Positions 7,885 to 32,000 of a DNA stretch of 32,000 bases are shown one piece after another. The stretch comes from Kineococcus radiotolerans SRS30216 = ATCC BAA-149. GTDB taxonomy: Bacteria > Actinomycetota > Actinomycetes > Actinomycetales > Kineococcaceae. Below the pieces are notes generated by a model. It saw nothing but the letters and a program-made list of their open reading frames with translations. It was not told the origin of the DNA and searched no databases. Numbering within the stretch: position 1 is the stretch's first letter; every line of letters starts with the position of its first letter. The stretch covers positions 4,680,001 to 4,712,000 of the forward strand of contig NC_009664.2 of NCBI RefSeq assembly GCF_000017305.1, in the 5' to 3' direction. A program made the translations under genes and the position numbers.

Positions 7885-7938
7885 GTCAGGAAGCTCGCAC
7901 CCGCGCCCTGACGGGTCAAGGGCCGCAGGCCGAAGTCA

Positions 7939-7953
7939 GTCAGGTGACGGATG
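7939..7953 (+). promoter_or_regulatory. CACGTG-core motif copy A (GTCAGGTGACGGATG)
   Basis: One mismatch to the 15-mer found at 9915 and 19408(rc). It lies 55-70 nt upstream of ATG 7884 of the minus-strand operon. Confidence 0.4.
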
Positions 7954-8349
7954 GGCTGGACGCAAGCACCCATCGCACGGGGGCGGGTGCTCGGCGCGAC
8001 GGTGACGAGACTGCGCGTCAGTGCGCCCGGCGAGGTGGGCGGTTTGCCGGAGGCAGTTCGGGGCGGGACATCCGCTGATCTTCCGCCCACGCCGCGCCGG
8101 CCGAGCACGTGATCCGTCGTGTGAGAAGTCGGCAGGATGCCGCGTCCTGCTGCTGACGGCGCCGGACACGCAGACGGCGTGGCCGCAACAACGCACGGAC
8201 TTTGACCGGATCCTGAGAGGGCTGAGCCGGAGTCGTCCGGCCTTGGACGACCTTTCAGGTCGGCGTGTCTGCCGCTGCTACGCGAGGTAGGGCAGGGCAT
8301 GCCCATCCTTCACCGAACAATGGTCCCGTCGGGGCTGCTTCAAGAAAAC

Positions 8350-8811
8350 TCACACCTCAGGGCGACTGGAAGCGGCGCTGGGGGGCGGCGCCATCATCGA
8401 GGCAGGGCAAGACGCCACCGGCAGATGCCTGGGGCGCGGAGGCCTCTCGGCCGGTGGAGGAAGCCAACCCGCAGGCGTCTCATGGGAGGACACCGACAGC
8501 ACTGACGAGACCGAGTCGGTTGTCGACACCAGCATCAAGCGAGTCATGCCTGCGGTCGGGAGCGAACTGGCCGTACTTGAGATGGCCGACGGAACCGAAG
8601 CCGTAGCCGTCTTAGCCAGGGCAGGAAAGGGTGAGGGGCCGCTGATGTACCCGGCTAGGGCACCAAAGAGCAGTGCCGGCAGTAGCGCCGCGGCAAGCAA
8701 GCCCGGCCGGGGAGCGCGAGTAGCGTCCACGGCCCACGGGACGAGAACCAGGGTTGCAAAGGAGACGACAGCACTACCGACTGCCCGTCGTATGCTGAGG
8801 CGTTCCGCCAT
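8350..8811 (-). CDS. Hypothetical small membrane protein (weak call)
   Basis: This is an internal ATG of track ORF 8350..8961 (MAERLSIRR...), followed by two hydrophobic helices (AVGSAVVSFATLVLVPWAV, LLAAALLPALLFGALAGYI). Third-position GC is only moderate, and it sits in a gene-poor region. Confidence 0.3.
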   Translation of the reverse strand: MAERLSIRRAVGSAVVSFATLVLVPWAVDATRAPRPGLLAAALLPALLFGALAGYISGPSPFPALAKTATASVPSAISSTASSLPTAGMTRLMLVSTTDSVSSVLSVSSHETPAGWLPPPAERPPRPRHLPVASCPASMMAPPPSAASSRPEV

Positions 8812-12547: not shown

Positions 12548-13186
12548 GTCATGCCGCCTCCGCAGGGCACCCGGCCTGAAGGCTGGTGCCAGTCCGCTTG
12601 CGCCCCTCGCGGCACCCTGCGCGTCGTCCAGGTGTGGGGCTGCGGCGGACGTCGCGCGAGCTCTAGGCCGACAGGAGCCGGACCCCGGCCCGCATGCGGG
12701 AGGGGCACGCGTGAGCGCAACGCCTGCCTGAGCTGCAAGCTCGGGGTGCGGACGACGTGGTGTCAGCCTGGAGTCCCGCTCCCGCTTGGAGCGGTACGGG
12801 CGCGGCGGGGCGGCGCTGCAGCGGGTTGACCCAGCAGGGCGCGTGTTGCCGCGCTCGGCAACCAGGACTCCACTTCCTGCGACCTTCAGCCGATCGACGC
12901 CAATCGTGCTGGCGCTGTGCCTACTGGCGCGCCCGCGGCCGAGCCGGCGCGGGCGGGGGTGGTGGCACGGCGGCGCCGACGCGCTCGCCGCGTTGAAGCG
13001 GGTCCAAGGTGACCCGTTGCACGACCTCTGGCGCGACTCCGTGCACGACACGGCAGGCGTGCGTGGGACTTTTGCCATGTCAGCCGCCCGATGGGACGCT
13101 GAGCCCGGCCCGCGCCGGCGCGTGGCCTCGCTGGGCACGAGCGGCGAGCAACCGGCGTTGGTCGTCACCACCGCGGCGGGACGCCA

Positions 13187-19492: not shown

Positions 19493-22438
19493 GTGGCGGT
19501 GGTCGACTCCACCGGGCATGAGCCGCGGGGCCGACGCGGGGTCGTCGCCCCGGTGGGTCCCCGTCGTGATCTCCACGCTCGGGCGCAGGCGCAGGGGTGG
19601 GCAGTGATCGGGCGCGAGCGGGAACTGGCTCGGCTGCGTGAGCTGCTCGGTTCGGTCGCGACCTCCGGTGCCGGCGAGGTGGTCGTGGTCGAGGGCGAGG
19701 CCGGCATCGGCAAGACGACCCTGGTCGCCGTCCTCACCGACGCGGCTGCCGCGGCGGGCTTCCAGACGCTGCGGTGCTCCGGTTTCCAGCGCGGTGCCCT
19801 GGCAGGTTTCGCCGCGCTGCACGAGCTGGTGCACCCGGTGCTGGACCGGGTCTTCGCGCTGCCCCCTCGCCAGCGTGCGGCGCTGCTGACCGCGCTGGGC
19901 CTGCAGGAGGGTCCCGCGCCCGACCGGCTGCTCATCGCCCTGGCGGTGCTGGGGCTGGTGGAGGAGGTGGCCGCCACCCGGCCGCTGCTGCTCGTCGTGG
20001 AAGACGCCCAGTGGTTGGACGTCTCCAGCGCCGAGGTCATCGGTTTCGTCGCCCGCCGCTTGGGCGTCGCCCGGGCCCTGCTGCTCGCCAGCGCCCGCAC
20101 CGACCGCGGCGAGGCTTCCTCGCCGGAGAGCGGCAGCGAGGTCCTGGAGTCCGCGGCGACCGTGAGGGTGCTGCTGCAGCCGTTGTCCCGGCACCATTCC
20201 GAGGAACTGCTGGACGCCGTGGAGGCCGCCGTCGCGCGTGCTCCCGGTGCCGCGGCGCCGTCGCCCCTCACGGCCGAGGCGCGCCGACGCGTCCTGGACG
20301 AGGCCGGCGGCAACCCCCTCGCGCTGCGTGAGCTGACAGCCGCCCTGCGCGCCCGCGACACGGGCCAGCGTCTCCCCGCCACGGCACCGCTACCGACCAC
20401 CCGCCGCCTAGAGGCCGCCTTCCTCGGCGAGGTGGCCGATCTGCCGGCCGCCAGCCGCACGCTGCTGCTGCTGGCGGCCGCCGGGGAGGGCGAACGCCTG
20501 TCGGAGCTGCTGGACGCCGGTCAGCGGCTCGGTGTGCTCATCCAGGACCTCACACCGCTCGAGCGGGCCGACCTGGTGAGCGTCGTGCGGGACCGGTTGA
20601 GGTTGCGCCACCCCCTGCTGCGCTCAGCCGTCTACGGCGCGGTCTCCTCCCTCGAGCGAGCCGAGGCGCACCGGGCCCTGGCCGCGACCACCGGCGACAG
20701 CGGTCGTGCCGCCTGGCACCGGGCCGCGGCCACGGTGGCGCCCGACGAGTCCGTGGCCGCCGAGCTCGAGACCGCGGCCGCGCAGGCGGCCGGGCGCGGG
20801 GCGCGAGCCGAGGCGGCCACCGCCCTGCACCGGGCCGCTGAGCTGTCTCCGGTGGTGGACGAGCGGGTGAGGCTTCTGGTGCAGGCGGCGGAGCTGGCCC
20901 GCCAGGCGGGCAACCTGGCCCAGGCCGATCAGGTCCTCGCCGAGGCGGCAGCATTGCCGATGTCGCCGCGGCGCCGCTTCGAGTGGGCGCAGTCCCGGGC
21001 GCTGGTGAGCACCTACCTGGGCCGGGAGCACAGCAGCACCGCCGACCAGCTCGCGTACGCCCAAGCGCTGGGGGGAGCCAGTGGTGCTGAGCATCCCGAG
21101 CAGCGCGCTGCAGTCCTCGTGGCCGCGGCGTTCCACGCCAGCAACCACGTCAACTCCGACACCAGCAGCGAGGTGGCGCTGCGCCGGGCCGTGCACGACC
21201 AGTTGGCTGCGATCGACCTGGGGCGTCGGGACGCCGCTCAGCAGCTGGGGCTGGCAGTGCTCGACCCGCTGGCGCACGCAGGGTTGGTCCGCCCCACCCT
21301 GCCGGCAATGCTCTCCCGCGCACCCGGTGACTCCCTGCTGTCCCTGCTCACCCTCGCCCAGGCGGCCGAGCTGCTGCAAGACCTGCCGACGGCGCGCCGT
21401 GCCCGCGCGCTGGCGGCCGAGGAGCTGCAGCGCCTGGGCTCACCGAGCGATGTCGTCCACGCGCTGAGTGGCCTGGCCCTCCTGGAGGTGATCGCCGGGC
21501 AGCTGCCCGACGCCCTCCAGCACGCCGAGCAGGCACGGCGCACGGCCCTCGATCTCGGTCTGCCGCTGGTCGCGGCGCTGGCCGGGGCCAGCACCGTCCA
21601 GGTGTACCTGTGGACCGGCCGCCGCCCGGAGGCGGCTACCGTGCTGCAGTCCAGCCGTGCGCTGTTGGCGGGCGCGGGCGTCGAACGCGTCCCCGCTGGC
21701 CTGGCCTGGGCCTCGGGCCTGCTGGCGATGGACCAGCGCCGCTACTCCGATGCCCTCACCGACCTGCACGGCACCTCCAGGCACCCGGTCTTCGAGCAGT
21801 GGGCGATCGCGGACCTCACCGAGGCAGCGGTGCGCAGCGGAGAGCCGGAGGTCGCCCACCCGGTCCTTGCCCGGGTCGGCCGGGCCGCCGAGGTGCTGGG
21901 TTCGGCGCACCTGAGCGCCCTGGTCCATCGCAGCCGCGCCCTGTTGGCCGACGGGCACGAGGCGGAAGAGCATTACCGGGCGTCACTGGCCGCCGGCGAG
22001 ACGGGCGGCGTCCTGCTGGAGCAGGCCCGCACCCAGCTGATCTACGGTGAGTGGCTGCGCCGTGCACGGAGGGTACTGGAGGCCCGTGAGCAGCTAAGCG
22101 CGGCGCTGCGCACCTTCGAGGCCGCGGGCGTCGGGGCCGGTTCGCTGGCGCAGCGCGCTGGTGCCGAGCTGCGCGCGGCGGGCAGCGTGCCTGCGACCCG
22201 CCCAGCGCCCGAACGTCCGCTGGCGTCGCTCACCTCGATGCTGACCGCGCAGGAACTGCAGATCGTGCGGCTGGCCGCGCAGGGGCTGACGAACAAGGAG
22301 ATCGCCGATCGGGTCTACCTCTCGCATCGCACCGTAGGCAGTCACCTGTACCGCGTCTTCCCCAAGCTCGGCGTCGCCAACCGACACCAGCTGCGCGAAA
22401 TCCTGGAGCGTACGGACCTTGCGCTGCCCAATCGGTGA
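19493..22438 (+). CDS. LAL-family (MalT-like, large ATP-binding LuxR) transcriptional regulator, paralogue 2
   Basis: Walker A is GEAGIGKT and Walker B is LLLVVEDAQWLD. The C-terminal LuxR HTH is LTAQELQIVRLAAQGLTNKEIADRVYLSHRTVGSHLYRVFPKLGV. Long nucleotide runs are identical to paralogue 1. The conserved block starts at GTG 19604 (VIGRERELA), so the start is uncertain (19493-19604). Confidence 0.9.
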   Translation: MAVVDSTGHEPRGRRGVVAPVGPRRDLHARAQAQGWAVIGRERELARLRELLGSVATSGAGEVVVVEGEAGIGKTTLVAVLTDAAAAAGFQTLRCSGFQRGALAGFAALHELVHPVLDRVFALPPRQRAALLTALGLQEGPAPDRLLIALAVLGLVEEVAATRPLLLVVEDAQWLDVSSAEVIGFVARRLGVARALLLASARTDRGEASSPESGSEVLESAATVRVLLQPLSRHHSEELLDAVEAAVARAPGAAAPSPLTAEARRRVLDEAGGNPLALRELTAALRARDTGQRLPATAPLPTTRRLEAAFLGEVADLPAASRTLLLLAAAGEGERLSELLDAGQRLGVLIQDLTPLERADLVSVVRDRLRLRHPLLRSAVYGAVSSLERAEAHRALAATTGDSGRAAWHRAAATVAPDESVAAELETAAAQAAGRGARAEAATALHRAAELSPVVDERVRLLVQAAELARQAGNLAQADQVLAEAAALPMSPRRRFEWAQSRALVSTYLGREHSSTADQLAYAQALGGASGAEHPEQRAAVLVAAAFHASNHVNSDTSSEVALRRAVHDQLAAIDLGRRDAAQQLGLAVLDPLAHAGLVRPTLPAMLSRAPGDSLLSLLTLAQAAELLQDLPTARRARALAAEELQRLGSPSDVVHALSGLALLEVIAGQLPDALQHAEQARRTALDLGLPLVAALAGASTVQVYLWTGRRPEAATVLQSSRALLAGAGVERVPAGLAWASGLLAMDQRRYSDALTDLHGTSRHPVFEQWAIADLTEAAVRSGEPEVAHPVLARVGRAAEVLGSAHLSALVHRSRALLADGHEAEEHYRASLAAGETGGVLLEQARTQLIYGEWLRRARRVLEAREQLSAALRTFEAAGVGAGSLAQRAGAELRAAGSVPATRPAPERPLASLTSMLTAQELQIVRLAAQGLTNKEIADRVYLSHRTVGSHLYRVFPKLGVANRHQLREILERTDLALPNR

Positions 22439-22481
22439 GGCCGGTCACCGCTGGTCGTGCGCCTGAGATCACGCGCAGATC

Positions 22482-22495
22482 GCGGGATGACCGTG
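22482..22495 (+). repeat. Array repeat copy 1: GCGGGATGACCGTG
   Basis: Exact core, preceded by acGCGCagatc. It lies 44 nt after the LAL stop. GATGAC (22486-91) pairs with GTCATC (22498-503). Confidence 0.9.
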
Positions 22496-22534
22496 AAGTC
22501 ATCGAAGGGGGCTGCGGTGCCGACGGTTACGGCA

Positions 22535-22540
22535 TAGCGT
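22535..22540 (+). promoter_or_regulatory. Candidate -10 hexamer TAGCGT for leaderless transcript of 22547 gene
   Basis: A TANNNT hexamer followed by exactly 6 nt and then ATG 22547. No Shine-Dalgarno sequence is present. Confidence 0.4.
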
Positions 22541-22546
22541 GCCGGG

Positions 22547-23086
22547 ATGCCTTCTGGACAGTCACTGGGGTGGGACCCCCACCAGCAAGAGCTCTGGGGA
22601 GTGATCGCACCAGGCCGCGACCCTGAGGACCAGCGGCGCACCTTCGAGCTCACGCGTGACGAGAGCTCCATCACCTGGGGGATGGACACCGGTCGTCTTG
22701 ACTGTGAGTACGAGGTGAGCGTGACGCGCTACCCCAGGGTGATGTTCGACTTCACCTTGTTGGACGACAGCGCCCCAGACAGCTGGCTGGAGCTGGTTGA
22801 GGTGAGTAAGGCCAGTGGCACCTCCATCGGTCTCAACGCCGTCGATGGAGCTGCAGTGGGTTCGGGGGGAGTCGGGGTGGAGCTTGAAGACGACCTGGGC
22901 ACGTTGTACAGCGCTGCCACGAACCACGTCGGGTCGGACTACGGGTTGATCTTTCGTCCGCGTCCACCGGCGGCAGCAAGTGAGTTGCGCATCTCGGTCG
23001 TTCAGGGTGAGCGGGTGCTCGCGCGGTACGTCGCTGACCTCACTCGTCCCCAACCGGTCCGCTCTGGCCTGGAAGCCACGCCCTGA
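22547..23086 (+). CDS. Hypothetical protein (cassette 1), no recognised family
   Basis: The 179-aa ORF has protein-like composition (W, F, Y, D and E present), unlike the overlapping antisense ORFs. Confidence 0.6.
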   Translation: MPSGQSLGWDPHQQELWGVIAPGRDPEDQRRTFELTRDESSITWGMDTGRLDCEYEVSVTRYPRVMFDFTLLDDSAPDSWLELVEVSKASGTSIGLNAVDGAAVGSGGVGVELEDDLGTLYSAATNHVGSDYGLIFRPRPPAAASELRISVVQGERVLARYVADLTRPQPVRSGLEATP

Positions 23087-23115
23087 GCGCGCACCACCCG
23101 AGCAGCGCGCGGATC

Positions 23116-23129
23116 GCGGGATGACCGTG
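23116..23129 (+). repeat. Array repeat copy 2: GCGGGATGACCGTG
   Basis: Exact core within GCGCGCGGATCGCGGGATGACCGTGCGTTC (23105-23134). An extra GCGCGCACCAC left-half sits right after the stop of the previous gene. Confidence 0.9.
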
Positions 23130-23177
23130 CGTTCCGCACTATGGCTCGACCAGACGTAGGGGCAGACCCCCGTGCGG

Positions 23178-24569
23178 TCAGGCTGCGGGAGACATGAGGT
23201 CAGGTAGGTGCTCGGCGACCCAAGCGGTGAGCTCGGGATTGGTGCTGGGCCAGCGTCGGCGTAGTCGCTGAATCTCGGCGGCAGCATCGAGGTGCTCGCG
23301 GTGCCGCCACAGGAAGTCCAGCAGCTCCAAACCCCACGGAGGATCCAGCAGCGGTCCAGACCGGCCATCGACGCGGGCAGGAGTGTGCTTCGACTTCACC
23401 ACCAGCTTCAGCGCACCCACCGCGGCCGGAACATCGTCTGCTGTGCCGTAGCGGGCGATGAGGTCCGTGGCGAACCGGCGCGCGGGCAGTGATCGCTCGA
23501 GAAGGAGCCGCTCCCACACCGCCCTGGCCACCGCCGGCCCACCCCGCAGGACGAGGTGGTGCATCGCACCCAGACGCACTTCCAGGCTCGCCGAGTGGCT
23601 CAGCTGCTCCAGCGCCTGCTGCACCGTCACCGTGCTGGGGCAGCGTCCGAGCACGTCGACCGCGTCGCTGGTCACGATCGCAGCGCTGGCGCCCTTCTTG
23701 GCGTCGTGACTCAAGGCGACCTCGGCCACGACAGCGGCAGTGGTCTCGCTCAACGGGCCCGGTAGCACCGTGAGGATCTTCAGGACCGGCCAATGCAGGT
23801 CGCGGCAGGGGCTGGCCAGCAGCTCGGTGAGCACCTGCTGATCCAGGGGCGGAACAGGCCAGAACTGGGCGTCGAACCAGCGCGCGACCGGGGTCACCGC
23901 ATCCTCGACGGCGTTGACGAGGTTGGCGACGTACTCCGGTGCCCGGGTGCGGGCCGGGGCGGTCGCCAGTGCTGCGCGCAGCTGATCGAGGGCGACGTGC
24001 AGCACCTGCTGGCACAGGGCTTCGTCGGGGGTGTTGCGCAAGGCGAAGACGCAGGTGTAGGCCGCGTTGCGGCGAAGCTGCAGCGAGGCGGCGGGGTTGG
24101 TGACGATGTCCAGCAGTTGCTGCACGATGCGCGGTCCGCCGATCGCGAACATCGTCGGGGAGCTCGTGAAGCTGTAGGGGTTGGGGTCTGGACCGCCGAT
24201 CAGCTGCTGCAGCCAGATGTCGCTGACGGTCTCGATGACGTCCAACGGCCGGGCGAGCAGTACCTGCACTCCGGCGTCCGCCAGCCGCAGGCTGGGGCGG
24301 ATCACGGCGACCGGACGATGGTGGTGATCGACCTCCACGCAGAAGAGCGCCGTCTGTCCCTGGACGTGGGCCTCAGTGCGGCGCAGCACCTCTTCATCGG
24401 CGTCGAGGGCGGCGGCGGCCAGCTCTGCGTCGTCGGCAGCGACGGTGATCTTCACTCGGGACGGGAGGTGGTCGCCCATCAGGGATGCGACCCACTCCTC
24501 CGGCCACTGCAATGCCTGCTGCAGTGCCTGCTGCTGCTGTTCCGGAGAGGTCTCAGACTCCGCGCTCAT
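23178..24569 (-). CDS. Hypothetical all-helical (HEAT/ARM-like look) protein (cassette 2, reverse orientation)
   Basis: The 463-aa ORF is Leu/Ala/Val/Asp/Gln-rich with a helical-repeat feel. An SD-like AAGGTG lies 7 nt before ATG 24569. The overlapping + strand ORF 23793..24815 is Gly/Arg-rich antisense shadow. Confidence 0.7.
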   Translation of the reverse strand: MSAESETSPEQQQQALQQALQWPEEWVASLMGDHLPSRVKITVAADDAELAAAALDADEEVLRRTEAHVQGQTALFCVEVDHHHRPVAVIRPSLRLADAGVQVLLARPLDVIETVSDIWLQQLIGGPDPNPYSFTSSPTMFAIGGPRIVQQLLDIVTNPAASLQLRRNAAYTCVFALRNTPDEALCQQVLHVALDQLRAALATAPARTRAPEYVANLVNAVEDAVTPVARWFDAQFWPVPPLDQQVLTELLASPCRDLHWPVLKILTVLPGPLSETTAAVVAEVALSHDAKKGASAAIVTSDAVDVLGRCPSTVTVQQALEQLSHSASLEVRLGAMHHLVLRGGPAVARAVWERLLLERSLPARRFATDLIARYGTADDVPAAVGALKLVVKSKHTPARVDGRSGPLLDPPWGLELLDFLWRHREHLDAAAEIQRLRRRWPSTNPELTAWVAEHLPDLMSPAA

Positions 24570-24735
24570 GGCCTCACACCTTCTTCATCAGCACCTGACT
24601 GCCCGCCGCGGAACGACGGACACACCAACCACCATGCCGCATCCACCTTCGCTACCAAGTGCCGTTCACAGCGCATCACTCGCTCGCTCTTCACCGTGAT
24701 CGCGTCGGCGCCGACAGCTCAGGAGCGCGCACCAC

Positions 24736-24749
24736 GCGGGATGACCGGA
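24736..24749 (+). repeat. Array repeat copy 3: GCGGGATGACCGGA
   Basis: Exact 12-mer GCGGGATGACCG, preceded by GCGCGCACCAC. Confidence 0.9.
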
Positions 24750-24817
24750 CATTCCCCGTGCTGGTCCAGGCGCCCTTCCCCCAGCCGGAGGACGGCTGAC
24801 ACGGTGGAGGGGTGAGC

Positions 24818-25489
24818 GTGCACAGCGAGGACTCCTTCCGATCCCAGCCTTTGAACGGCCTCCCGCTGCCGGCCTCGACCGCGGCCGCCGTGGAGTCGTT
24901 GCTGTCTCCGCGCGGGCGTCCTACCCGAGGTCCGGGCGAGCGGGGCCGGCTGGGGCACTTCGAGCCGATCCCGGAAGAAGCCGCAGCTGAGTGGCTGGGC
25001 TTCGCCCCGCCCACCTTGCCCAGCCTGAGCGGGTCCGGGTTCCGTCGGCACTTCGCACGCCAAGGTGGGCGCGACCTCGTCGCGCGGGCGGACCTGACTC
25101 GTGGCGAGAGTGCCGCGGTCTACGTCTTCTACTTGCCGGCGGGCTCGGCGTGGCGGGAGGAGACGAGGTTCGCCGAAACGCGCCGGGAGGGTCTGACGTT
25201 CTTGTGGCTGCGGGCGGGGTACGGGGTGCCCTGGCCTGAGGAGGAAGGAGGACCGGTGGGAGTGGAGGAGACCGCGACCATTGGTCGTGACCCTGCCAGT
25301 GGTGACTTCCTCACGCTGACGGTGAGCAGTACCCGGGTCGGGGTCCAGTACCAGCGAGGGGTGACTCGCCTGGCGTGGTCGTACCGTTCCCAGGACGCCG
25401 ACTTCAACGTCACGGTGATGAGTGGGCGCTCACCGCGGGCGTCGGTGGAGATGCTGGTGAGCGACCGCGGCGCGCTCTACCTGGGCTGA
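24818..25489 (+). CDS. Hypothetical protein (cassette 3)
   Basis: The track ORF starts at GTG 24812. GTG 24818 sits 7 nt after GGAGG (24806-24810), so I prefer it. No family recognised. Confidence 0.6.
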   Translation: MHSEDSFRSQPLNGLPLPASTAAAVESLLSPRGRPTRGPGERGRLGHFEPIPEEAAAEWLGFAPPTLPSLSGSGFRRHFARQGGRDLVARADLTRGESAAVYVFYLPAGSAWREETRFAETRREGLTFLWLRAGYGVPWPEEEGGPVGVEETATIGRDPASGDFLTLTVSSTRVGVQYQRGVTRLAWSYRSQDADFNVTVMSGRSPRASVEMLVSDRGALYLG

Positions 25490-25547
25490 GACATGCTCCC
25501 TGCGTGAGGAGCTGTCGCATCACCGGTCACCGGAACCCGCCCGAATT

Positions 25548-25561
25548 GCGGGATGACCGTG
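25548..25561 (+). repeat. Array repeat copy 4: GCGGGATGACCGTG
   Basis: Exact core. Upstream CCCGC-N7-GCGGG can pair, and ATGACC pairs with GGTC(G)AT at 25563-25569. Confidence 0.9.
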
Positions 25562-25592
25562 CGGTCGATGCCGCTGCTGGCACGCTGACAGC

Positions 25593-26207
25593 GTGGACGA
25601 GGCGATCATCTACGACGACCAGCCCCCGCCGTTGGGACAGCACTGGCGGGTAACCGTCAAGGCCCAGCTGACGGTGCACGGGGTGCACGGGCGGACACAG
25701 GCGCAAGGTCATCCGGCTCCGCGCACCGTGGTGCAGGTCGCCGATCAGCGGGGCGTGGATGCGGCGGTGACCGCACAGGTCCAGGAGGGACACCACTTCG
25801 CCATCCACGTCGAGTTCCAGGACCCGCAGGTGCCCGCGTGGGATGAGCCGATGCATCCTGCGCTGCGCCGGAGGCTGGAGAAGCAGCGCACGGTTCACTC
25901 GACCTACCTGCAGACCGGAAGATCGCACGTGGTGCAGTCGGGGTTGAACGTCCGGGTGGACTCCGGCGTCGATGCCCGGCTGGGCTGGGTCCTGCCCTCC
26001 CCGCGGCCTGGGGTCGCCTTCATGGGCACCCTGGCTGCCTTCGCGGGCTGGCACCTGCTGGTGCTTACGGGTGCACCGGGCACCTTCAGCTTGCAGGCGC
26101 CGGCGTGGTGGGGGTACGTGGATCGGTCACCGGAGCAGGTCGCACCGGGGCAGGCCCAGCCGGCGGACGGCGCCCTGGTTGTCTCGGTGACCTTTCAGGT
26201 GCCATGA
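25593..26207 (+). CDS. Hypothetical protein with C-terminal hydrophobic segment (cassette 4)
   Basis: The 204-aa ORF starts at GTG 25593 with no SD. A hydrophobic stretch VAFMGTLAAFAGWHLLVL lies near the C-terminus. Confidence 0.55.
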   Translation: MDEAIIYDDQPPPLGQHWRVTVKAQLTVHGVHGRTQAQGHPAPRTVVQVADQRGVDAAVTAQVQEGHHFAIHVEFQDPQVPAWDEPMHPALRRRLEKQRTVHSTYLQTGRSHVVQSGLNVRVDSGVDARLGWVLPSPRPGVAFMGTLAAFAGWHLLVLTGAPGTFSLQAPAWWGYVDRSPEQVAPGQAQPADGALVVSVTFQVP

Positions 26208-26238
26208 CCTGGCGCGCCGGAGGTGTGGTGACCGGATG

Positions 26239-26252
26239 GCGGGATGACCGCG
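26239..26252 (+). repeat. Array repeat copy 5: GCGGGATGACCGCG
   Basis: Exact 12-mer, preceded by GGATg and followed by CGTTC. Confidence 0.9.
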
Positions 26253-26272
26253 CGTTCGGCAAGGCATCGAAG

Positions 26273-26518
26273 CTAGGAGCGGCGACGGAGCCCGCGGGCT
26301 ATGCCGGCTTGGTAGCGGTACAGCAGTGCCTCGCCGAGGGACAAGGCCAGGGAAAGGCCGAAGACGACGGCCGCGGTCGTCAAGCTGCCAGCCCAGGCGC
26401 CGGTGAAGAGGCGGTGTGCTGGCAGAGCAAGAGTAGCGAGCAGGAATGCGAGGGGCACCGCGAGGCGCAGAGTCAGCCGAGCGTTGCTCGGCTGTTCTCG
26501 CTGGGTGCGCGTCCTCAT
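26273..26518 (-). CDS. Small two-TM membrane protein (cassette 5, reverse orientation)
   Basis: The 81-aa ORF has helices LAVPLAFLLATLALPA and LTTAAVVFGLSLALSLGEALL, with basic termini. Confidence 0.5.
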   Translation of the reverse strand: MRTRTQREQPSNARLTLRLAVPLAFLLATLALPAHRLFTGAWAGSLTTAAVVFGLSLALSLGEALLYRYQAGIARGLRRRS

Positions 26519-26524
26519 GGAGTA

Positions 26525-26530
26525 AGGCTA
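26525..26530 (-). promoter_or_regulatory. Candidate -10 hexamer TAGCCT for leaderless transcript of 26518 gene
   Basis: The minus strand reads TAGCCT-tactcc-ATG, i.e. TANNNT plus a 6-nt spacer. Confidence 0.4.
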
Positions 26531-26599
26531 AGGCTCGCTGAGACCATCATGATTGCTTTCGAGCATGAGATGCAGGTGCATGGCCCGATCGCGCGGACG

Positions 26600-26613
26600 G
26601 CGGGATGACCGGA
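26600..26613 (+). repeat. Array repeat copy 6: GCGGGATGACCGGA
   Basis: Exact 12-mer, preceded by GCGCGGAcg. The ATG inside it is the artefactual start of track ORF 26605. Confidence 0.9.
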
Positions 26614-26676
26614 AGGTTGTCTACAGCGGTGCGGGGACGCGTAGTTCGGGCCGTGCGTTTGTGCAAGGCTCCGAAG

Positions 26677-27540
26677 ATGGCGGACTTCCCCTGGTCACGT
26701 GCGTCGGTCGTCCATGCCCTGGGCGAGCGGGTCCTCACCGAGGGGGCGGTGACCAGAGGATTCACCGGCATCGACGTCCGGCCGGCGCTAACAGGAGAGC
26801 TCCTGCACCTCGACGCCGTCCACGAGCACGTGGTCGTCGTCCTGCGGTGGCAGCAGGACCCCGGCATCTACGCCATCGCTATCCCCCTGCTCCCTGCGGG
26901 AGCCTATGGCGACGCGGGGCTGCCGCCGGGTATGAGCACTGGACTGCCCGTCACCTCGTTGCCGGAGTGGGTCGAGGAGGTGGCCTTGTGGCTGATGGAG
27001 GAGTTCGATACCGGACTGGTGCGCCGCGCGACCCGCATCCAGGTTGGTGACCTCATCTTCCTCACCGCCGACGGCGGGGCCGCTGACGTCGCACCTGAGG
27101 GGTACTACGTCAGCACTCTCCACCTCGGGCCTGGCGGCGGGAGAGGTGAGCACCTCGCCGACGTCGGCCTCGACGTCAGCACCGCCCGGCGCATCCTGAG
27201 CAGTGGACGCCTGCTCACCTGGCTCCACGCCTACGTCGACAACGGCCGCGGTGAGCCCTTCATCGGTCATGCCGTCGTAGCCCGTGCACCCGCTGACCCG
27301 GGCGGCAACGGGACGCAACCAGCGCGGCTGGAGGTCTTGGAGATCGTCCCCGGTACCCCGGGCACGGTCGCTGCCGCGTTGGTCTACCATGCCGTCCGCG
27401 ATGCCATCGAGAGCGGCGCGGAGACCGTCTCCAGCACTCTCGACGATCCCGCCTTGGAGAAGGTCGGCTTCCGCCGTCACGGGAGCGGGTACCTGTCGTT
27501 GTCGTGGCGTGACGTTCAGATCCCTGACCTTCGCCGCTGA
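26677..27540 (+). CDS. Hypothetical protein with GNAT-like C-terminal segment (cassette 6)
   Basis: ATG 26677 (MADFPWSR) is the first start downstream of the repeat. The C-terminal RLEVLEIVPGTPGTVAAALVYHAVRDAIESGAETVSSTLDDPALEKVGFRRHG resembles the acetyl-CoA-binding end of GNAT acetyltransferases. This similarity was judged by eye only. Confidence 0.55.
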   Translation: MADFPWSRASVVHALGERVLTEGAVTRGFTGIDVRPALTGELLHLDAVHEHVVVVLRWQQDPGIYAIAIPLLPAGAYGDAGLPPGMSTGLPVTSLPEWVEEVALWLMEEFDTGLVRRATRIQVGDLIFLTADGGAADVAPEGYYVSTLHLGPGGGRGEHLADVGLDVSTARRILSSGRLLTWLHAYVDNGRGEPFIGHAVVARAPADPGGNGTQPARLEVLEIVPGTPGTVAAALVYHAVRDAIESGAETVSSTLDDPALEKVGFRRHGSGYLSLSWRDVQIPDLRR

Positions 27541-27615
27541 CCTGTGCTGCAGCGGTGCTTGAGTTCGCTCATCGGTAGACCTTGGCCTCGCCGATCGCTG
27601 ACGTCCGCCCGGATC

Positions 27616-27629
27616 GCGGGATATCCGTG
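27616..27629 (+). repeat. Array repeat copy 7 (variant): GCGGGATATCCGTG
   Basis: Two mismatches (GA to AT) create the palindrome GGATATCC. It is preceded by cGGATC as in copy 2. Confidence 0.8.
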
Positions 27630-27708
27630 GGGTCACCCAGCCGGCTCATCATGGCCCGACGATGAAGAAGTTCGCGTGGCAGTCCAGGATCATGAGGGGG
27701 CGATCTGG

Positions 27709-28008
27709 ATGCTGTGGCTGGTGCCGGCGGCGCTCTTTTCGGGCCTCTCCGGCTGGATGCAGGCTCGGCCCGCTCCAGAGCGCGCCTCGTGGGAGAGGGA
27801 CCCAAGCCAGCGCGGCTGGCCCAGAGTCTTCGACGTCGCAGCGTTGGTGTTCATCGCCATGGCCGGGGTCGCATCGTCTGATTCGACGCTGCCCTTCTGG
27901 GCTCGGCTGGCGATCATCCTGGTGGTCGCGGTTGTGCCGTATCAGGTGGTCACCACGGTCGTGAGGCGCAGAGGTGACAAGTCGCCGCGCAAGACGGCGG
28001 GTCGGTGA
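27709..28008 (+). CDS. Small three-TM membrane protein (cassette 7)
   Basis: ATG 27709 lies 8 nt after GAGGGGG. Hydrophobic helices are MLWLVPAALFSGLSGWM, VFDVAALVFIAMAGV and ARLAIILVVAVVPYQVV. The track ORF start at 27544 precedes the repeat and is unlikely. Confidence 0.5.
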   Translation: MLWLVPAALFSGLSGWMQARPAPERASWERDPSQRGWPRVFDVAALVFIAMAGVASSDSTLPFWARLAIILVVAVVPYQVVTTVVRRRGDKSPRKTAGR

Positions 28009-28020
28009 GACCGGGCGCTG

Positions 28021-28560
28021 TCAGCGGCGGTGGGCTGGTCTGCCGTGGTAGGGGTCCAGGACGTGGGTGTGGGTGGTGAGCCAGTCCATCTGCTCGTCCC
28101 ACTACCATCGGCGCTGCGGCACGGGTGGCGGCTGGTGCGCGTCGCCCCAGATGTAGGCGTGCACGCCGTGGAAGCCGCAGCGATCACTGATGGCTTCGGC
28201 AGCCGACGGTTGGCCGAGTGAGGCCGCGGCGTCGAAGAGCAGGTCGTCCATCGCCACCAGAGCGCCCCGGACGGCGCCGTTCCATACGGTGTGAGGGCGA
28301 GTCAGCGCCCGCCGGCACCGTTTCGCGTCGATGGACAGCCGGGTAGGCCCTACCGGTGCTTGCAGCAGGCCCCGCTGGTGGTTGCCTCGCAGCAACGTCT
28401 GGCTGCTGTGGGCGGCGAGCAGGTGCCCATCGGCGACGCACAGGGGGTCGGAGCCGGGGAAGCCGGCGAGGGCAGGTCCTGCGTTCAGCCGCAGGAAGTG
28501 CAGGGGAACCAGGTGGCCGGGTAGACGCACGTGGATGAGCTGCAGCTGCGGGTCATCCAT
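28021..28560 (-). pseudogene. Degenerate metallophosphoesterase-like gene interrupted by in-frame TAG at 28102-28104
   Basis: The order LIHVRLPGH ... ADGHLL ... LRGNHQ ... THTH loosely follows the DxH / GDxxDR / GNHE / GHTH motifs. The same frame continues for 26 codons past the amber codon to TGA 28021-28023, and that stretch carries the THTH block. Confidence 0.4.
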
Positions 28561-28661
28561 GGGGCCAGTCTGCCCGCTCTACGTGCTGGATGGCGTGCAC
28601 CGATCATCCGGCCTTCGACAGAAAGGTGAGATCGCCGGCCGCTAGCGACAGCGCGCACAAC

Positions 28662-28675
28662 GGGGGATGACCGCG
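28662..28675 (+). repeat. Array repeat copy 8 (variant): GGGGGATGACCGCG
   Basis: One mismatch in the 12-mer, preceded by GCGCGCACAAC. It is followed by the perfect palindrome GCGACGTCGC. Confidence 0.85.
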
Positions 28676-28693
28676 ACGTCGCAGGTGCGACTA

Positions 28694-29257
28694 CTATTCG
28701 TGGCCGCTGCCGTGGGCGAGGAGGGCACCGTCGGCTGCCACCGCACGCCAGCTGCTGTCCTTCACTGCCCACTCGCTGGCCTCGTCCAGGAGGGCGGGGG
28801 TCCACCAGATCCCGCCCGTGGCGGGGGCGTAGTGCTCGATTCCGTCGGGTGTGCGCACGAGGACGACGGCGACGTCGGCGCGGGCGTAGCCGAAGAAGTG
28901 GCTGACCCCTCCGCCCGGTGCACCGGAGACTTCCGGATGACGCCAGGTGGCGGCTACGTCGTCGGCGGGTGCGGTAATCGTGCTGGTGAAGTAGCCGTGG
29001 CTGGCGCGGGTGCGCTGACTGGCGGTGAAGTACGTCGTCGCTGCGTTCGATGCGCGCACACCCAAGGCATCGGCGTAGGAGGTGCGGGCGGCGTAGACCG
29101 CGCGCAGGCCGTTCGGTACGGGCGTGGGTACCGCGCGGGGTGCATCAGGTACCGGTCCTTTGCGCAGGTAGAGGTTGGCGGCAGCCTTGAAGCAGCCGAT
29201 GACGGACTGCTCGGACACCGTCGCTAGGTCCAGCAGTCGGGGTGTCCTGAAGTCCAT
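28694..29257 (-). CDS. Hypothetical protein (cassette 8, reverse orientation)
   Basis: The 187-aa ORF has normal composition. The overlapping + strand ORF 28667..29227 is Gly-rich shadow that starts at the ATG inside the repeat. Confidence 0.6.
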   Translation of the reverse strand: MDFRTPRLLDLATVSEQSVIGCFKAAANLYLRKGPVPDAPRAVPTPVPNGLRAVYAARTSYADALGVRASNAATTYFTASQRTRASHGYFTSTITAPADDVAATWRHPEVSGAPGGGVSHFFGYARADVAVVLVRTPDGIEHYAPATGGIWWTPALLDEASEWAVKDSSWRAVAADGALLAHGSGHE

Positions 29258-29263
29258 AGTGCG

Positions 29264-29269
29264 ACTCTA
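29264..29269 (-). promoter_or_regulatory. Candidate -10 hexamer TAGAGT for leaderless transcript of 29257 gene
   Basis: The minus strand reads TAGAGT-cgcact-ATG, i.e. TANNNT plus a 6-nt spacer. Confidence 0.45.
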
Positions 29270-29396
29270 GGACGGCACAACCGGGACCTCTTAGATCACT
29301 CGCTCTTCGGCAAGACCGCGACGTCGCCGACTGTCCATGATCACGTCCTGAGCGTGGGGCGAGCGGGAGATCGTCGTCGCGTGTCAGCATCGGCTC

Positions 29397-29822
29397 ATGC
29401 CGTGGAGTCCGCCATCGTTCGAGGCCCCCGTGCACGATCCGCGCATCGAGCGGTTCCGGGACCGCGCCGCCCGCATCCGCCACCGCGATGGTCGTGTGGG
29501 GACCGTGTACTTCGCGGTCAGCATCGAACAGGCCAGGCCGGAGGGTCATCTGTGGTGGCGGCGGTGGTCCGCGCCGTTCTCCCTGGTCGATGGTTACGTG
29601 TGGGGCGATGCGGAGGTCACATCGACGCTCGATCCCTCCGGTCGGTACGGGCCGGAGTACCGGGTGAGCTATCAAGCCTGGGGTGAGGATCTCGAACGGC
29701 TGCTGGACGAGGCTGACCGGGGCGTTTTCACCTGGTTGGAGGAGGTGTGGCAGTTGGAGTGGTTGGGTGATGAGGAGATGGCGCGCTTCCGTGAGGAGCG
29801 CAGGGACGAGCTCGACGAGTGA
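29397..29822 (+). CDS. Hypothetical acidic/Trp-rich protein (cassette 8, second gene)
   Basis: The 141-aa ORF is divergent from 28694..29257. No family recognised. Confidence 0.6.
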   Translation: MPWSPPSFEAPVHDPRIERFRDRAARIRHRDGRVGTVYFAVSIEQARPEGHLWWRRWSAPFSLVDGYVWGDAEVTSTLDPSGRYGPEYRVSYQAWGEDLERLLDEADRGVFTWLEEVWQLEWLGDEEMARFREERRDELDE

Positions 29823-29918
29823 GCTGAGCCCGAGAGACTCGTCGCCCTGCCCGCAAGAGGCACCTTTGACATGGAGTGACGCCAAGACCGTGAGGTCGCC
29901 GCGGGCAGCGCCCGTATC

Positions 29919-29932
29919 GCGGGATGAGCGGG
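29919..29932 (+). repeat. Array repeat copy 9 (variant): GCGGGATGAGCGGG
   Basis: One mismatch in the 12-mer (C to G), followed by CGTTC. ATGAGC can pair with GCTC(G)AT at 29946-29952. Confidence 0.8.
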
Positions 29933-30020
29933 CGTTCGAGTTCATGCTCGATGCGGGGTGTAACGCTGGTGACATGAGTAGGTAGAGCGACCTGCGGGAG
30001 GGCGCTGGATGGGGTGAGGA

Positions 30021-30833
30021 ATGAACCAGGACGACAGCTTCCAGCTGAGGGATCTGCTGGAGCAGGCCGGTGGCGCCGGGCTTTCGCAGGGTGAGGCCGA
30101 GACCGTCTTCGCGCAGGCGTGGGCCCGGATCGAGGAGGGCATCGCTCGAGAGCCGGGCGACACGGCCGAGAAGTCGGCTTCTGCCCGGCGACTGGACGTC
30201 CTGGCGCTGCAGCCGCAGCGTCGCCGCAGGAGGGCGCGGGCCATCGTCATCACGTCGGCGGTCCTGCTGGCCGGCGCGAGCAGCGCAGCGGCCGCGGAGT
30301 ACATCGCCGCCCGCACCGGGCAGCACCTGAACGGCTGGGAGCTGGGCGCCGCGGGTCCGGGTGAGGTCCTCGACCAGGGCGGCAGCGACTACCGCCAGGT
30401 CCTGGAGGACTCCGTTGCCGGCATCCCCTTCGCCCCCGGCTACGAGGCCCAGCGCGCTGACACCCTGACCCAGGGCATGCTCCAGGCAGAAGCGGGCTCT
30501 CAGCTCACTGAGGGCGCGGCACGAGCGCAGTTTGCCCGCAACGCCTTGTGTACCTGGGCCGACGCCTGGGTCGTGGCCCAGGCCGCCGGGAACACCACCG
30601 CACAGGCGCAGGCTGTCGCGACGCTGGCCGCGGCCCACGACTGGCCCGACGTCCAGGCCCTCGACGAGTACGGCCCCGCCACGAGCTTCGCGTGGCTCGC
30701 ACCGCTGGAGAGCGCCGCCCGGGCGGGTGACCGCCAAGGCGTGCTGGACGCCGTCACCGACAGCAGCCGCTGCCGCCCCGACCTGGCTCCGGCCATCGCC
30801 GCCGACCCCGCCTTCCAAGGCTTCAGCAGGTGA
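30021..30833 (+). CDS. Single-pass membrane protein, possible anti-sigma factor
   Basis: ATG 30021 follows GGTGAGGA. A basic stretch RRRRRAR is followed by the TM helix AIVITSAVLLAGASSAAAA and then a ~170-aa extracytoplasmic part. Its stop overlaps the sigma gene start (GTGA). No zinc-binding anti-sigma HxxxCxxC motif is present. Confidence 0.6.
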   Translation: MNQDDSFQLRDLLEQAGGAGLSQGEAETVFAQAWARIEEGIAREPGDTAEKSASARRLDVLALQPQRRRRRARAIVITSAVLLAGASSAAAAEYIAARTGQHLNGWELGAAGPGEVLDQGGSDYRQVLEDSVAGIPFAPGYEAQRADTLTQGMLQAEAGSQLTEGAARAQFARNALCTWADAWVVAQAAGNTTAQAQAVATLAAAHDWPDVQALDEYGPATSFAWLAPLESAARAGDRQGVLDAVTDSSRCRPDLAPAIAADPAFQGFSR

Positions 30834-31375
30834 GCTCCGTGCAGTCCGCCGCCACCGGTGAGGAGCTGGCGGCTTTCGAGCAGGTCTACCGCGACACCCG
30901 CCAGGCGCTGCTGGCCTACCTGCACCGCCGCGCCCCCGCCGACGCCGCCGATCTGCTCGCCGAGGTCTACCTCGTGGCATGGCGGCGCCGTGACGTCCTC
31001 CCGGCCGGTGAGCAGCAGCGCCTGTGGCTGTACGGCATCGCCCGCCGCCTCCTGGCCGAGCACCACCGCACCCGGGCAGATCACGCTTCTCTCGACACCG
31101 TGGGTGAAGCCGTCTTAACCCCCTGGCGGGAGGGCCGCGACGGCGAGACGCCGAGGGCCGCGGCAGTGCGGCAGGTGCTGGCGGAGCTAAACGACACCGA
31201 CCGCGAACTGCTGACCCTGACCACCTGGGAGCACCTCAGCACCACCGACGCCGCCCACGTCGTTGGCATCACCGCCGGGTCGGCGCGTGTGCGCCTGCAC
31301 CGCGCCCGCCGCAAGCTCCGTGAGCATCCGAGCCTGCGCACCCTGCTCGACGAACCCTCACCCCATCTCGCCTGA
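30830..31375 (+). CDS. ECF-type RNA polymerase sigma-70 family factor
   Basis: Region 2 is DLLAEVYLVAWRRRDVLP...WLYGIARRLLAEHHR. Region 4 is LNDTDRELLTLTTWEHLSTTDAAHVVGITAGSARVRLHRARRKL. Confidence 0.9.
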   Translation: MSSVQSAATGEELAAFEQVYRDTRQALLAYLHRRAPADAADLLAEVYLVAWRRRDVLPAGEQQRLWLYGIARRLLAEHHRTRADHASLDTVGEAVLTPWREGRDGETPRAAAVRQVLAELNDTDRELLTLTTWEHLSTTDAAHVVGITAGSARVRLHRARRKLREHPSLRTLLDEPSPHLA

Positions 31376-31456
31376 GCTCCGACGTCTACGCCGTGCACCA
31401 GTACGCGCTCCTCGCCAGAAGCGTGAAGTTGCCGGCCGCCGACGACCGTCCGCACC

Positions 31457-31470
31457 GCGGGATAACCGCG
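31457..31470 (+). repeat. Array repeat copy 10 (variant): GCGGGATAACCGCG
   Basis: One mismatch in the 12-mer (G to A). GCGCAG pairs with CTGCGC just downstream. Confidence 0.8.
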
Positions 31471-31515
31471 CAGTCGAGCAAGCTGCGCCAGGGGCGTGGT
31501 GGCAGGCTTGGTGAC

Positions 31516-31809
31516 ATGGCACCCCTCGTCGAGACCAACGACGTCGTTGAGGCGTTGGAGTTGTACGACGGTGACGTGATCAAGCACCCCGTCACTGGGG
31601 CGGTCATGACGATTACCGCCCACATGCACCTGAACCCCCACTACCTCGACCTCATCCCGGGCATCGTCCGGTTCGACGTCTACAGCGGTCTCAACGTGGA
31701 GGGCCCGCTGGAGTGGGAGGGGCCCGAGGAGCAGTTGGTCATCGGTCCTGGCATGCGCATCCGCCGGCTGTACCAGTACACGCTGCCGCCGGGAACCCGC
31801 ATCAAGTGA
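31516..31809 (+). CDS. Hypothetical small protein (cassette 10)
   Basis: ATG 31516 (MAPLVETNDVV) is the first start after the repeat. The 97-aa product has normal composition. The track start at 31393 precedes the repeat. Confidence 0.55.
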   Translation: MAPLVETNDVVEALELYDGDVIKHPVTGAVMTITAHMHLNPHYLDLIPGIVRFDVYSGLNVEGPLEWEGPEEQLVIGPGMRIRRLYQYTLPPGTRIK

Positions 31810-31923
31810 CGCCTCACGTGGTGCAGGACCGGATGATCACACGACAGCGTCCGCTCGTGAACTGCGCCCGTCCGCTCGTCGGCGGCAGGTGCGGACGTCA
31901 CCGGATGTCCATGATCGTGCACC

Positions 31924-31937
31924 GCGGGATGACCGTG
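31924..31937 (+). repeat. Array repeat copy 11: GCGGGATGACCGTG
   Basis: Exact core flanked by GTGCAC on both sides (a possible 6-bp stem). Confidence 0.9.
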
Positions 31938-31952
31938 CACTTCGCGCGCACC

Positions 31953-31966
31953 GCGGGATGACCGTG
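31953..31966 (+). repeat. Array repeat copy 12: GCGGGATGACCGTG
   Basis: Exact core within GCGCGCACCGCGGGATGACCGTGCGTTC. It lies 29 nt after copy 11 with no ORF between them. Confidence 0.9.
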
Positions 31967-32000
31967 CGTTCTGATTGAGGTGTCACAGAGAAGCGCCCGC

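Follow-up and report, generated by a model that had tools for sequence, protein, structure and literature searches.

Two kinds of described system come closest to the locus reported here. In sedentary chromosomal integrons and in clusters of attC sites lacking integron-integrases (CALINs), sites of the same orientation separate units of one or two genes, and each attC site is an imperfect palindrome of 57–141 nt that is recombined as a single-stranded hairpin (R''/L''/L'/R'). Integron cassettes are mostly promoterless, lie in the direction of the array, and are expressed from a Pc promoter, and the integrase, a tyrosine recombinase with an IntI-specific insertion, is encoded next to attI at the array head with divergent transcription. 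The pdif/dif modules of Acinetobacter plasmids are small units bounded by short double-stranded sites; these pdif sites are 28-bp look-alikes of dif (11-6-11) that alternate in orientation and are acted on by the host XerC/XerD. Integron surveys have reported that Actinobacteria lack complete integrons, for a reason described as unclear (PMC9024848, PMC4889954). Here we describe a region of ~9.5 kb (22471–31971) in a 32-kb window of the Kineococcus radiotolerans genome (the window is the whole stretch of DNA analysed, and all coordinates refer to it unless a contig is named), in which 12 copies of a short repeat on one strand separate units of one or two genes, with intervals of 29–1620 nt. 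The region probably belongs to a chromosomal array of gene cassettes that was assembled through conservative site-specific recombination between double-stranded sites of ~32 bp; on the best reading it works like an integron but is not a member of the integron family.

The core of the repeat, GCGGGATGACCG, is present in eight exact copies in the window, compared with a chance expectation of 0.01 (dinucleotide-preserving shuffle), and in four near copies with one or two mismatches. All 12 are on the + strand, and no copy was found in nucleotides 1–22438. This recount agrees with a first-pass annotation made from the sequence alone, as do the inter-copy intervals (634, 1620, 812, 691, 361, 1016, 1046, 1257, 1538, 467, and 29 nt). 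A position-weight matrix for a 33-nt motif, trained on ~100 copies and scanned over both strands of the 32 kb, recovered all 12 copies with scores of 19–42, and the sole additional match on either strand (position 4672, score 9.3) is at chance level. The sites are as follows.

22470–22501, + strand: motif copy 1, core 22482–22493 exact, matrix score 37.1; the first site of the array, 44 nt past the stop codon of a gene for a large ATP-binding regulator of the LuxR family (LAL)
23104–23135, + strand: motif copy 2, core 23116–23127 exact, matrix score 42.3
24724–24755, + strand: motif copy 3, core 24736–24747 exact
25536–25567, + strand: motif copy 4, core 25548–25559 exact
26227–26258, + strand: motif copy 5, core 26239–26250 exact; homology to Kineococcus sp. 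G2 (L025) stops just beyond it
26588–26619, + strand: motif copy 6, core 26600–26611 exact
27604–27635, + strand: motif copy 7, core 27616–27627 GCGGGATATCCG, two mismatches; the weakest copy, matrix score 19.1
28650–28681, + strand: motif copy 8, core 28662–28673 GGGGGATGACCG, one mismatch
29907–29938, + strand: motif copy 9, core 29919–29930 GCGGGATGAGCG, one mismatch
31445–31476, + strand: motif copy 10, core 31457–31468 GCGGGATAACCG, one mismatch
31912–31972, + strand: motif copies 11 and 12, cores at 31924 and 31953 exact and 29 nt apart; the 'empty' unit between them consists of a right flank and a left flank only

Conservation extends from about −12 to +20, so the longer consensus proposed in the first-pass annotation is real, and takes the linear form CGCGCnnnAnC-GCGGGATGACCG-yGnnGTCG (~32 nt). 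Core positions 4–10 form the information peak (96–100% invariant) and are flanked by CGCGG and CCGYG, which make a short dyad of 5 bp (CGCGG-N5-CCGYG) around an asymmetric, near-invariant centre of ~7 nt, GGATGAC. All window copies are intergenic, as had been stated, provided that the last gene starts at 31516, where an independent gene call on the Logan contig L001 (the L numbers denote the contigs and loci compared) places it, rather than at 31393. This contig is identical to window positions 29311–32000 and carries 544 nt more, containing another gene and a motif doublet at ~32471/32500; the array extends past the end of the window.

The same motif was found in at least 11 other Kineococcus genomes (Kineococcus siccus, K. 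endophyticus, and strains G2, NPDC059986, and SYSU DK001, DK002, DK003, DK005, DK010, DK019, and DK025). When one genome per species was scanned for GCGGGATGACCGYGCGTTC, 57 loci were obtained, 23 of which came from ten Kineococcus species, the rest being single chance matches. The window did not appear among these loci, so the collection does not include its species as a representative. The 8-kb Kineococcus loci contain up to 10 cores each and 103 copies altogether, with no opposite-strand copy within any locus, and 99 of the 103 copies are intergenic. The occurrence of the motif in both orientations upstream of core genes had been named beforehand as an argument against a cassette array; in the 23 loci it is locally same-strand and intergenic and lies beside accessory-type genes. 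Among 96 array genes, Pfam identified GNAT acetyltransferases (six genes), PIN toxins (five), VapB antitoxins (three), Phd antitoxins, zeta/AAA_33, ECF (extracytoplasmic function) sigma factors (three), a glyoxalase, and several DUFs, together with many orphans, whereas the 104 genes flanking the arrays are ordinary metabolic and regulatory genes. Doublets like that at 31924/31953, with cores 25–35 nt apart, recur in other genomes. In a metagenome scan, 117 of the 120 loci were chance matches, and the remaining three were genuine arrays, all without a recombinase gene.

Comparison of the flanks of all pairs among 118 motif instances revealed no pair that is homologous on both sides, 41 pairs homologous on the right only, and two on the left only. 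In the one-sided pairs, the switch occurs inside the 12-nt core, the left flank following the upstream unit and the right flank the downstream unit. Relative to the cores, blocks of homology between genomes end preferentially at −19 to +5 and −12 to +23 (within ~20 nt). For instance, window positions 25573–26257, comprising the gene at 25593–26207 and the site that follows it, also occur in Kineococcus sp. G2, where the neighbours on either side are different, and a VapBC-like cassette is 92–99% identical in three genomes, its similarity starting at the motif, with three unrelated upstream neighbours. Two-sided homology is absent and the breakpoints lie at cores, as would be expected if recombination takes place inside an invariant core, and because one-sided homology switches inside the core, the comparisons indicate that cassettes move as units joined there. 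The first-pass annotation had also raised the possibility that the locus might be syntenic across genomes, and no synteny was found across any copy. Its suggestion of an integron-like or insertion-hot-spot cassette array is thus supported by both comparisons with related genomes, from which we infer that the recombination is site-specific.

These data also bear on the possibility that the motif is a dispersed intergenic repeat (a selfish REP- or MITE-like sequence, i.e. akin to repetitive extragenic palindromic sequences or miniature inverted-repeat transposable elements, or the preferred target of an insertion element) spread among accessory genes and that the mosaics are made by general or microhomology recombination with no dedicated recombinase. 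This explanation, which we consider unlikely, accommodates the occurrence of the motif, singly, in doublets, and in arrays, on numerous contigs of each genome, as well as the fact that most arrays have no nearby recombinase gene. It does not predict the strict same-strand polarity over up to 10 copies, the absence of a palindrome, hairpin, or inverted partner, or the near-invariance of the centre while the flanks drift, which a strand-exchange region would produce; moreover, the 12–20 nt of identity would be very short for homologous recombination, judging from the known needs of RecA. Hallmarks of REP sequences and bacterial interspersed mosaic elements are also missing, in that there is no hairpin and only a single orientation, and no REP-associated tyrosine transposase (RAYT) was among the top 25 Pfam families of each protein set, although no search was aimed at RAYTs.

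The repeat follows cassette boundaries and not gene direction, as the first-pass annotation had concluded from the window: 45 array genes are co-oriented with the motif and 51 are opposite. The gap between motif and gene is set only by the end that faces the motif (median 85–122 nt for 5' ends and 50–60 nt for 3' ends), and there is neither a fixed motif-to-start-codon spacing nor anything conserved downstream at promoter distance. The main alternative offered in the first-pass annotation, namely that the motif is a regulatory box bound by a LAL (MalT-like) regulator or by the ECF sigma factor of the array and that the region is a regulon island, is left unsupported by these figures and appears highly improbable. 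Two LAL regulator genes do lie directly upstream, an ECF sigma gene is present in the array, the motif is intergenic, and the GGGATGA within its core resembles the MalT box. Nevertheless, neighbouring genes are as often antisense as sense (36 versus 46 downstream and 46 versus 50 upstream), the distance to the start codon varies with no conserved −10-like element downstream, and no LAL homologue was found in the 23 other motif-bearing loci. The GGGAT-to-CGT spacing is 7 nt, compared with 16–17 nt in known ECF promoters, and a regulatory box leaves both the junctions inside the core and the total lack of synteny unexplained. A MalT-box/LAL regulon was rejected because the likeness is a presumed one and no LAL gene lies near other arrays, and an ECF or sigma-70 promoter because of the wrong spacing and the lack of downstream conservation.

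Complementary covariation between motif columns was absent among 101 copies, and single-stranded folds of eight window copies did not differ significantly from those of shuffled sequences (z from −1.6 to +1.3). Because single strands fold no better than shuffles, the repeat is a linear site and not an attC-like hairpin; a hairpin or attC-like fold was excluded on both grounds, in agreement with the earlier remark that the site is unlike attC. Several other identities were considered and rejected. An RNA element was ruled out by the lack of any Rfam 15 match at the gathering threshold in the whole window. A coding repeat was considered since variation on the minus strand is synonymous-like (DxTVIPRSAR), yet no frame of the six is preferentially open through the core. 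An upstream open reading frame (ORF) beginning at the ATG of the core (MTVRS...) would give peptides of arbitrary length with no conservation past the motif. For a phage or plasmid origin, no megablast match was found, and motif matches in viral contigs are single chance hits without the flanks.

Serial accretion of small integrative elements at one reusable att site, i.e. an insertion hot spot used by different enzymes of phage or integrative conjugative element type, would likewise leave direct core repeats at the boundaries, which are its generally expected product, and the first copy does abut an ordinary chromosomal gene. The units, however, are 0.36–1.6 kb long and have no integrases of their own, the same site occurs at many loci in many species, and there are no phage or plasmid matches; no tRNA-type target was noticed, although tRNA genes were not searched for. 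We regard this origin as very unlikely.

Two genes in Kineococcus arrays encode tyrosine recombinases of ~300–320 amino acids (aa) with a Phage_integrase domain and a SAM-like N-terminal domain. The conserved recombinase is ~308 aa long, retains all catalytic residues (R-K-H-R-H-Y), and shows a mean column identity of 78% across 11 sequences from at least five genera. Relatives with 70–92% identity are present in Kineococcus, Cellulomonas, Motilibacter, Jatrophihabitans, and Actinomadura and in many soil metagenomes. The recombinase scores 114–118 bits against the XerC/XerD models TIGR02224 and TIGR02225 (cut-offs, 335 and 330), and 52–54 bits against TIGR02249 (cut-off, 265) and 27–29 bits against PRK15417 (cut-off, 435), both of which are IntI models. 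Its closest PDB relatives are XerD and XerA, Brujita gp33 (5vfz) is a detectable structural relative, and no IntI match was found among its PDB relatives. By these scores the array-associated recombinase is Xer-like and is neither IntI nor XerC/XerD. In every Kineococcus context examined (L048, L056, L166/L167, and L173), the recombinase gene lies amid motif copies, with motifs on both sides, and is antiparallel to them. In Kineococcus SYSU DK010 (L173), one array contains two recombinase copies (5001–5948 and 7493–8431) that are 87% identical and 1.5 kb apart, and the first is located near conserved genes for trmI, an M50 peptidase, and a PDDEXK protein.

In Cellulomonas, Motilibacter, Jatrophihabitans, and Actinomadura, variant cores (GCGGCATGAGCG-like) are found beside an antiparallel recombinase gene. 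Cellulomonas sp. ATA003 has nine near-exact copies of GCGGCATGA(C/G)CG opposite the recombinase strand and one on the same strand; between these copies are small genes, a Phd/ParE pair, and two IS110 elements. Motilibacter peucedani has 22 copies of GCGGCA(A/T)GAGCG with a CGCGCGC left flank, all opposite the recombinase strand (22 versus 0), including a triple site just upstream of the recombinase gene and a tandem run of 17 copies that recur every 34 nt. This run (L170, 15004–15548) is made up of head-to-tail 34-nt units that contain the local site only (CGCGCGCAGA GCGGCAAGAGCG CGCGATGCTAC), and represents an amplified version of the 'empty' 29-nt window doublet. Jatrophihabitans has a recurring composite of two related cores, six antiparallel and two parallel to the recombinase gene, and in Actinomadura and a metagenome-assembled actinobacterial contig a GCGGCATG... 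site is located on the opposite strand, ~45–65 nt ahead of the recombinase start codon. More generally, a site ~45–85 nt upstream of the recombinase start and on the other strand is found in Cellulomonas, Motilibacter, Actinomadura, and L176. The core sequence thus differs from one recombinase host to another, whereas its location and polarity are retained. A dispersed repeat would not be expected to have a core that varies with the genus in which its associated recombinase is found, although the tandem amplification in Motilibacter resembles slippage or unequal crossing-over, and the recurrence of IS110-family transposases in arrays of other genera fits such a repeat, since transposases of this family are known to target specific repeats.

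IS110-family (DEDD) transposase genes lie inside recombinase-associated arrays of Cellulomonas (L168, 2002–3240 and 6143–7213), Actinomadura (L175, 20514–20927), and a further actinobacterium (L176, 6501–7842, 15057–16397, and 17584–18924). These insertions recall the IS1111-attC elements, which target integron sites. Beside the recombinase gene of Actinomadura geliboluensis (L175, 11210–16743), genes with defence-like domains (Trypco1, MoxR-type AAA, CHAT, and cNMP-binding/Crp) were found along with Barstar and NADAR genes, a cargo that suggests, from its annotation, that these regions may contain anti-phage or toxin-immunity genes.

According to the site-specific cassette model that we favour, CGCGG and CCGYG would be the two recombinase-binding arms of the site and GGATGAC the strand-exchange region, which would be the most invariant part because it must match among many compatible sites. 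The asymmetric centre would fix a common direction, so that direct repeats would give excision and integration of circles and not inversion. In a unit, one or two genes, in either orientation and with their own promoters, would be enclosed by the right flank of the preceding site and the left flank of the following one. Such units would be excised, integrated, and swapped between arrays, both within a genome and among related genomes, and the circles could reinsert at any site. Because genes lie either way with room for their own promoters, their expression would be independent of a common promoter. The likeliest enzyme would be the ~308-aa Xer-like tyrosine recombinase carried in arrays antiparallel to the sites, and the window array, having no local recombinase, would be served in trans like a CALIN.

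Several observations weigh against this model. The first-pass annotation had proposed following the array past 32000 for a recombinase; the array does continue there, but tblastn found no recombinase gene in the 32-kb window or in the 544 nt beyond. Only 2 of the 23 motif-sampled Kineococcus loci and none of the three metagenomic arrays carry one, and action in trans must be assumed because so few motif loci do. The position of the recombinase gene relative to array polarity is variable, being close to the upstream end in Cellulomonas and close to the downstream one in K. auxinigenes. Variant cores outside Kineococcus were identified post hoc, and the dyad is only 5 bp, with arms that are otherwise asymmetric. 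The evidence for cassette mobility is comparative, and neither circular cassettes nor excision junctions were observed. Comparisons of close strains yielded identical sequence (L171 is the same sequence as L168) or assembly artefacts only, an apparent strain breakpoint in K. auxinigenes being a poly-G assembly artefact at a hairpin. Finally, simple excision and integration do not explain the doublets and the 17-copy tandem run; doublets such as 31924/31953 are too short for circularisation because their cores are only 25–35 nt apart.

In function, the closest system is the chromosomal integron/CALIN. Cassettes occur in varied orders and contexts in related genomes with the junctions in the site, the contents (orphans, GNAT proteins, toxin–antitoxin pairs that are often reversed, and glyoxalase-type proteins) are of the kind generally known from integrons, and the recombinase is a simple tyrosine recombinase consisting of core-binding and catalytic (CB + CAT) domains, which in several genera is transcribed away from an adjacent site. 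Like CALINs, many of the arrays have no local integrase. The arrays differ from integrons in that their recombinase falls far short of the IntI model TIGR02249 (see above), their site is linear, non-folding, and ~32 nt long, there is no gene-orientation bias and hence no expression logic driven by a Pc promoter, and the recombinase gene appears to lie within arrays and not at one fixed end. The head of the window array abuts a LAL regulator gene. In site type, the closest relatives are the Xer-dependent dif modules, which are likewise small, include toxin–antitoxin modules, have short double-stranded sites and Xer-type enzymes, and occur in varied contexts. Unlike in those modules, all sites here are direct and the dedicated recombinase scores far below the XerC/XerD cut-offs, and the site is presumably also unlike the actinobacterial dif. 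The features that define the two systems (IntI, the attC fold, and co-orientation of genes; XerC/XerD and alternating dif-like sites) are all absent. Brujita-type Int and the XerT/IntKX simple-integrase elements (Smyshlyaev et al. 2021, PMC8138268) resemble the array recombinase in being Xer-like, lacking an arm-binding domain, and being tied to mobile DNA; they move one phage or island into one site and do not form multi-unit, recombinase-less arrays.

The searchable literature, which was incomplete, yielded no description of either the motif or a cassette system in Actinobacteria, and there is a substantial chance that a new family of genetic element is involved. A broader proposal, which we make tentatively and hold to be somewhat short of probable, is that Actinobacteria have their own counterpart of the integron, in which an Xer-derived recombinase from a family with thousands of soil-metagenome relatives shuffles promoter-bearing cassettes at double-stranded sites of the form GCGG[G/C]A[T/A]GA[C/G]CG, and which evolved independently of IntI/attC with another expression logic. 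If the system works in this way, Actinobacteria, which include antibiotic producers and soil generalists, would hold a separate cassette-capture device, and searches for accessory-gene flux would have to change, as attC and IntI models would miss such arrays. It would also provide a second, independently evolved recombinase-driven cassette array to compare with integrons. Orphans, toxin–antitoxin pairs, and possibly defence genes are available in concentrated form in the arrays, and a short double-stranded site with a small recombinase in high-G+C hosts could serve genome engineering.

Genes in the window were called using G+C content by codon position and a codon-usage score, which recovered those of the first-pass annotation and one more. 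The array contains nine genes on the + strand and four on the − strand; the first-pass annotation listed three of the latter and overlooked that at 28102–28560. Almost none of the array genes matches Pfam, NCBIfam, or PADLOC, which bears out the description of the intervals as mostly orphan genes. The exception is the ECF sigma gene at 30830–31375; of the ECF sigma pair reported earlier, this member stands and the second has no Pfam support. None of the window cassettes has a detectable GNAT domain, so the GNAT-like tail was not confirmed. The left boundary and the cassette genes are as follows.

19493–22438, + strand: LAL-type regulator (AAA_16 + TPR + GerE), the left boundary, outside the array
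22547–23086, + strand: cassette 1, orphan of 179 aa, or of 161 aa if it starts at 22601
23178–24569, − strand: cassette 2, orphan of 463 aa
24812–25489, + strand: cassette 3, orphan of 225 aa; a distant homologue (30% identity) is present in L045, just outside the L045 motif run
25593–26207, + strand: cassette 4, 204 aa; an 83% identical cassette (nucleotide level) is present in the Kineococcus sp. G2 array with other neighbours
26273–26518, − strand: cassette 5, orphan of 81 aa
26677–27540, + strand: cassette 6, orphan of 287 aa; the ORF is open from 26605
27676–28008, + strand: cassette 7, first gene, 110 aa, with a weak coding score
28102–28560, − strand: cassette 7, second gene, 152 aa
28694–29257, − strand: cassette 8, first gene, 187 aa
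29430–29822, + strand: cassette 8, second gene, 130 aa, with a homologue within the L049 array (38% identity) and a short match in L036 (64% over 33 aa)
30021–30833, + strand: cassette 9, first gene, orphan of 270 aa, overlapping the start of the sigma gene by 4 nt
30830–31375, + strand: cassette 9, second gene, ECF sigma factor (Sigma70_r2 + r4_2)
31516–31809, + strand: cassette 10, orphan of 97 aa by the independent gene call

An exact-protein look-up of the last gene with the 31393 start gave no match, and the 115-aa gene just past the window is unrelated to the 115-aa genes near the recombinase gene. The G+C content falls from ~0.74–0.77 to 0.66–0.70 exactly at the array start, after the LAL-type regulator gene. 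Directly upstream of the array are two paralogous LAL-type regulators of ~980 aa (13103–16033 and 19493–22438; both AAA_16 + TPR + GerE); as none lies near other arrays, their adjacency is probably coincidental. Over 7.9 kb, the Logan contig L002 and the window differ at a single base. The seven Logan contigs listed, one per run, end at the same base, 24763 (L002–L007), 16 nt past the core at 24736; this shared end suggests that the first part of the unit either has further copies in the genome or varies among the samples.

A second site type, TCG(G/C)CAGA(A/T)GCGTGAAGT, occurs exclusively on the strand of the motif (7 versus 0) and either abuts the recombinase stop codon or lies 45–47 nt upstream of a core. 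Its copies are as follows.

31412–31429, + strand: TCGCCAGAAGCGTGAAGT, 45 nt upstream of the core at 31457; near-identical to the site at the K. endophyticus recombinase stop codon
28617–28634, + strand: TCGACAGAAAGGTGAGAT, a weaker, putative site 45 nt upstream of the core at 28662
Elsewhere (motif-oriented coordinates): L019, 277; L049, 4788; L048, 1499; L056, 4477; L166, 9980

A non-coding element of ~215 nt was also identified (L036, 2636–2845; also in L011, L015, L018, L045, L048, L049, L054, L056, and L173). It always starts at a core, its left flank differs each time, and it is multi-copy in Kineococcus SYSU DK010 and G2; in L173, it is located between a core and the recombinase-adjacent site. 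Long poly-G/poly-C runs in L172 and L174 (from 6005) begin exactly at the hairpin of this element, an artefact that mimics a strain-specific breakpoint. The predicted RNA fold of the element has a minimum free energy of −119.6 kcal/mol (z = −6.1), and compensatory changes distinguish the 24-bp hairpins of the two species. The element may act as a small RNA, as a terminator, or as a structured accessory to recombination.

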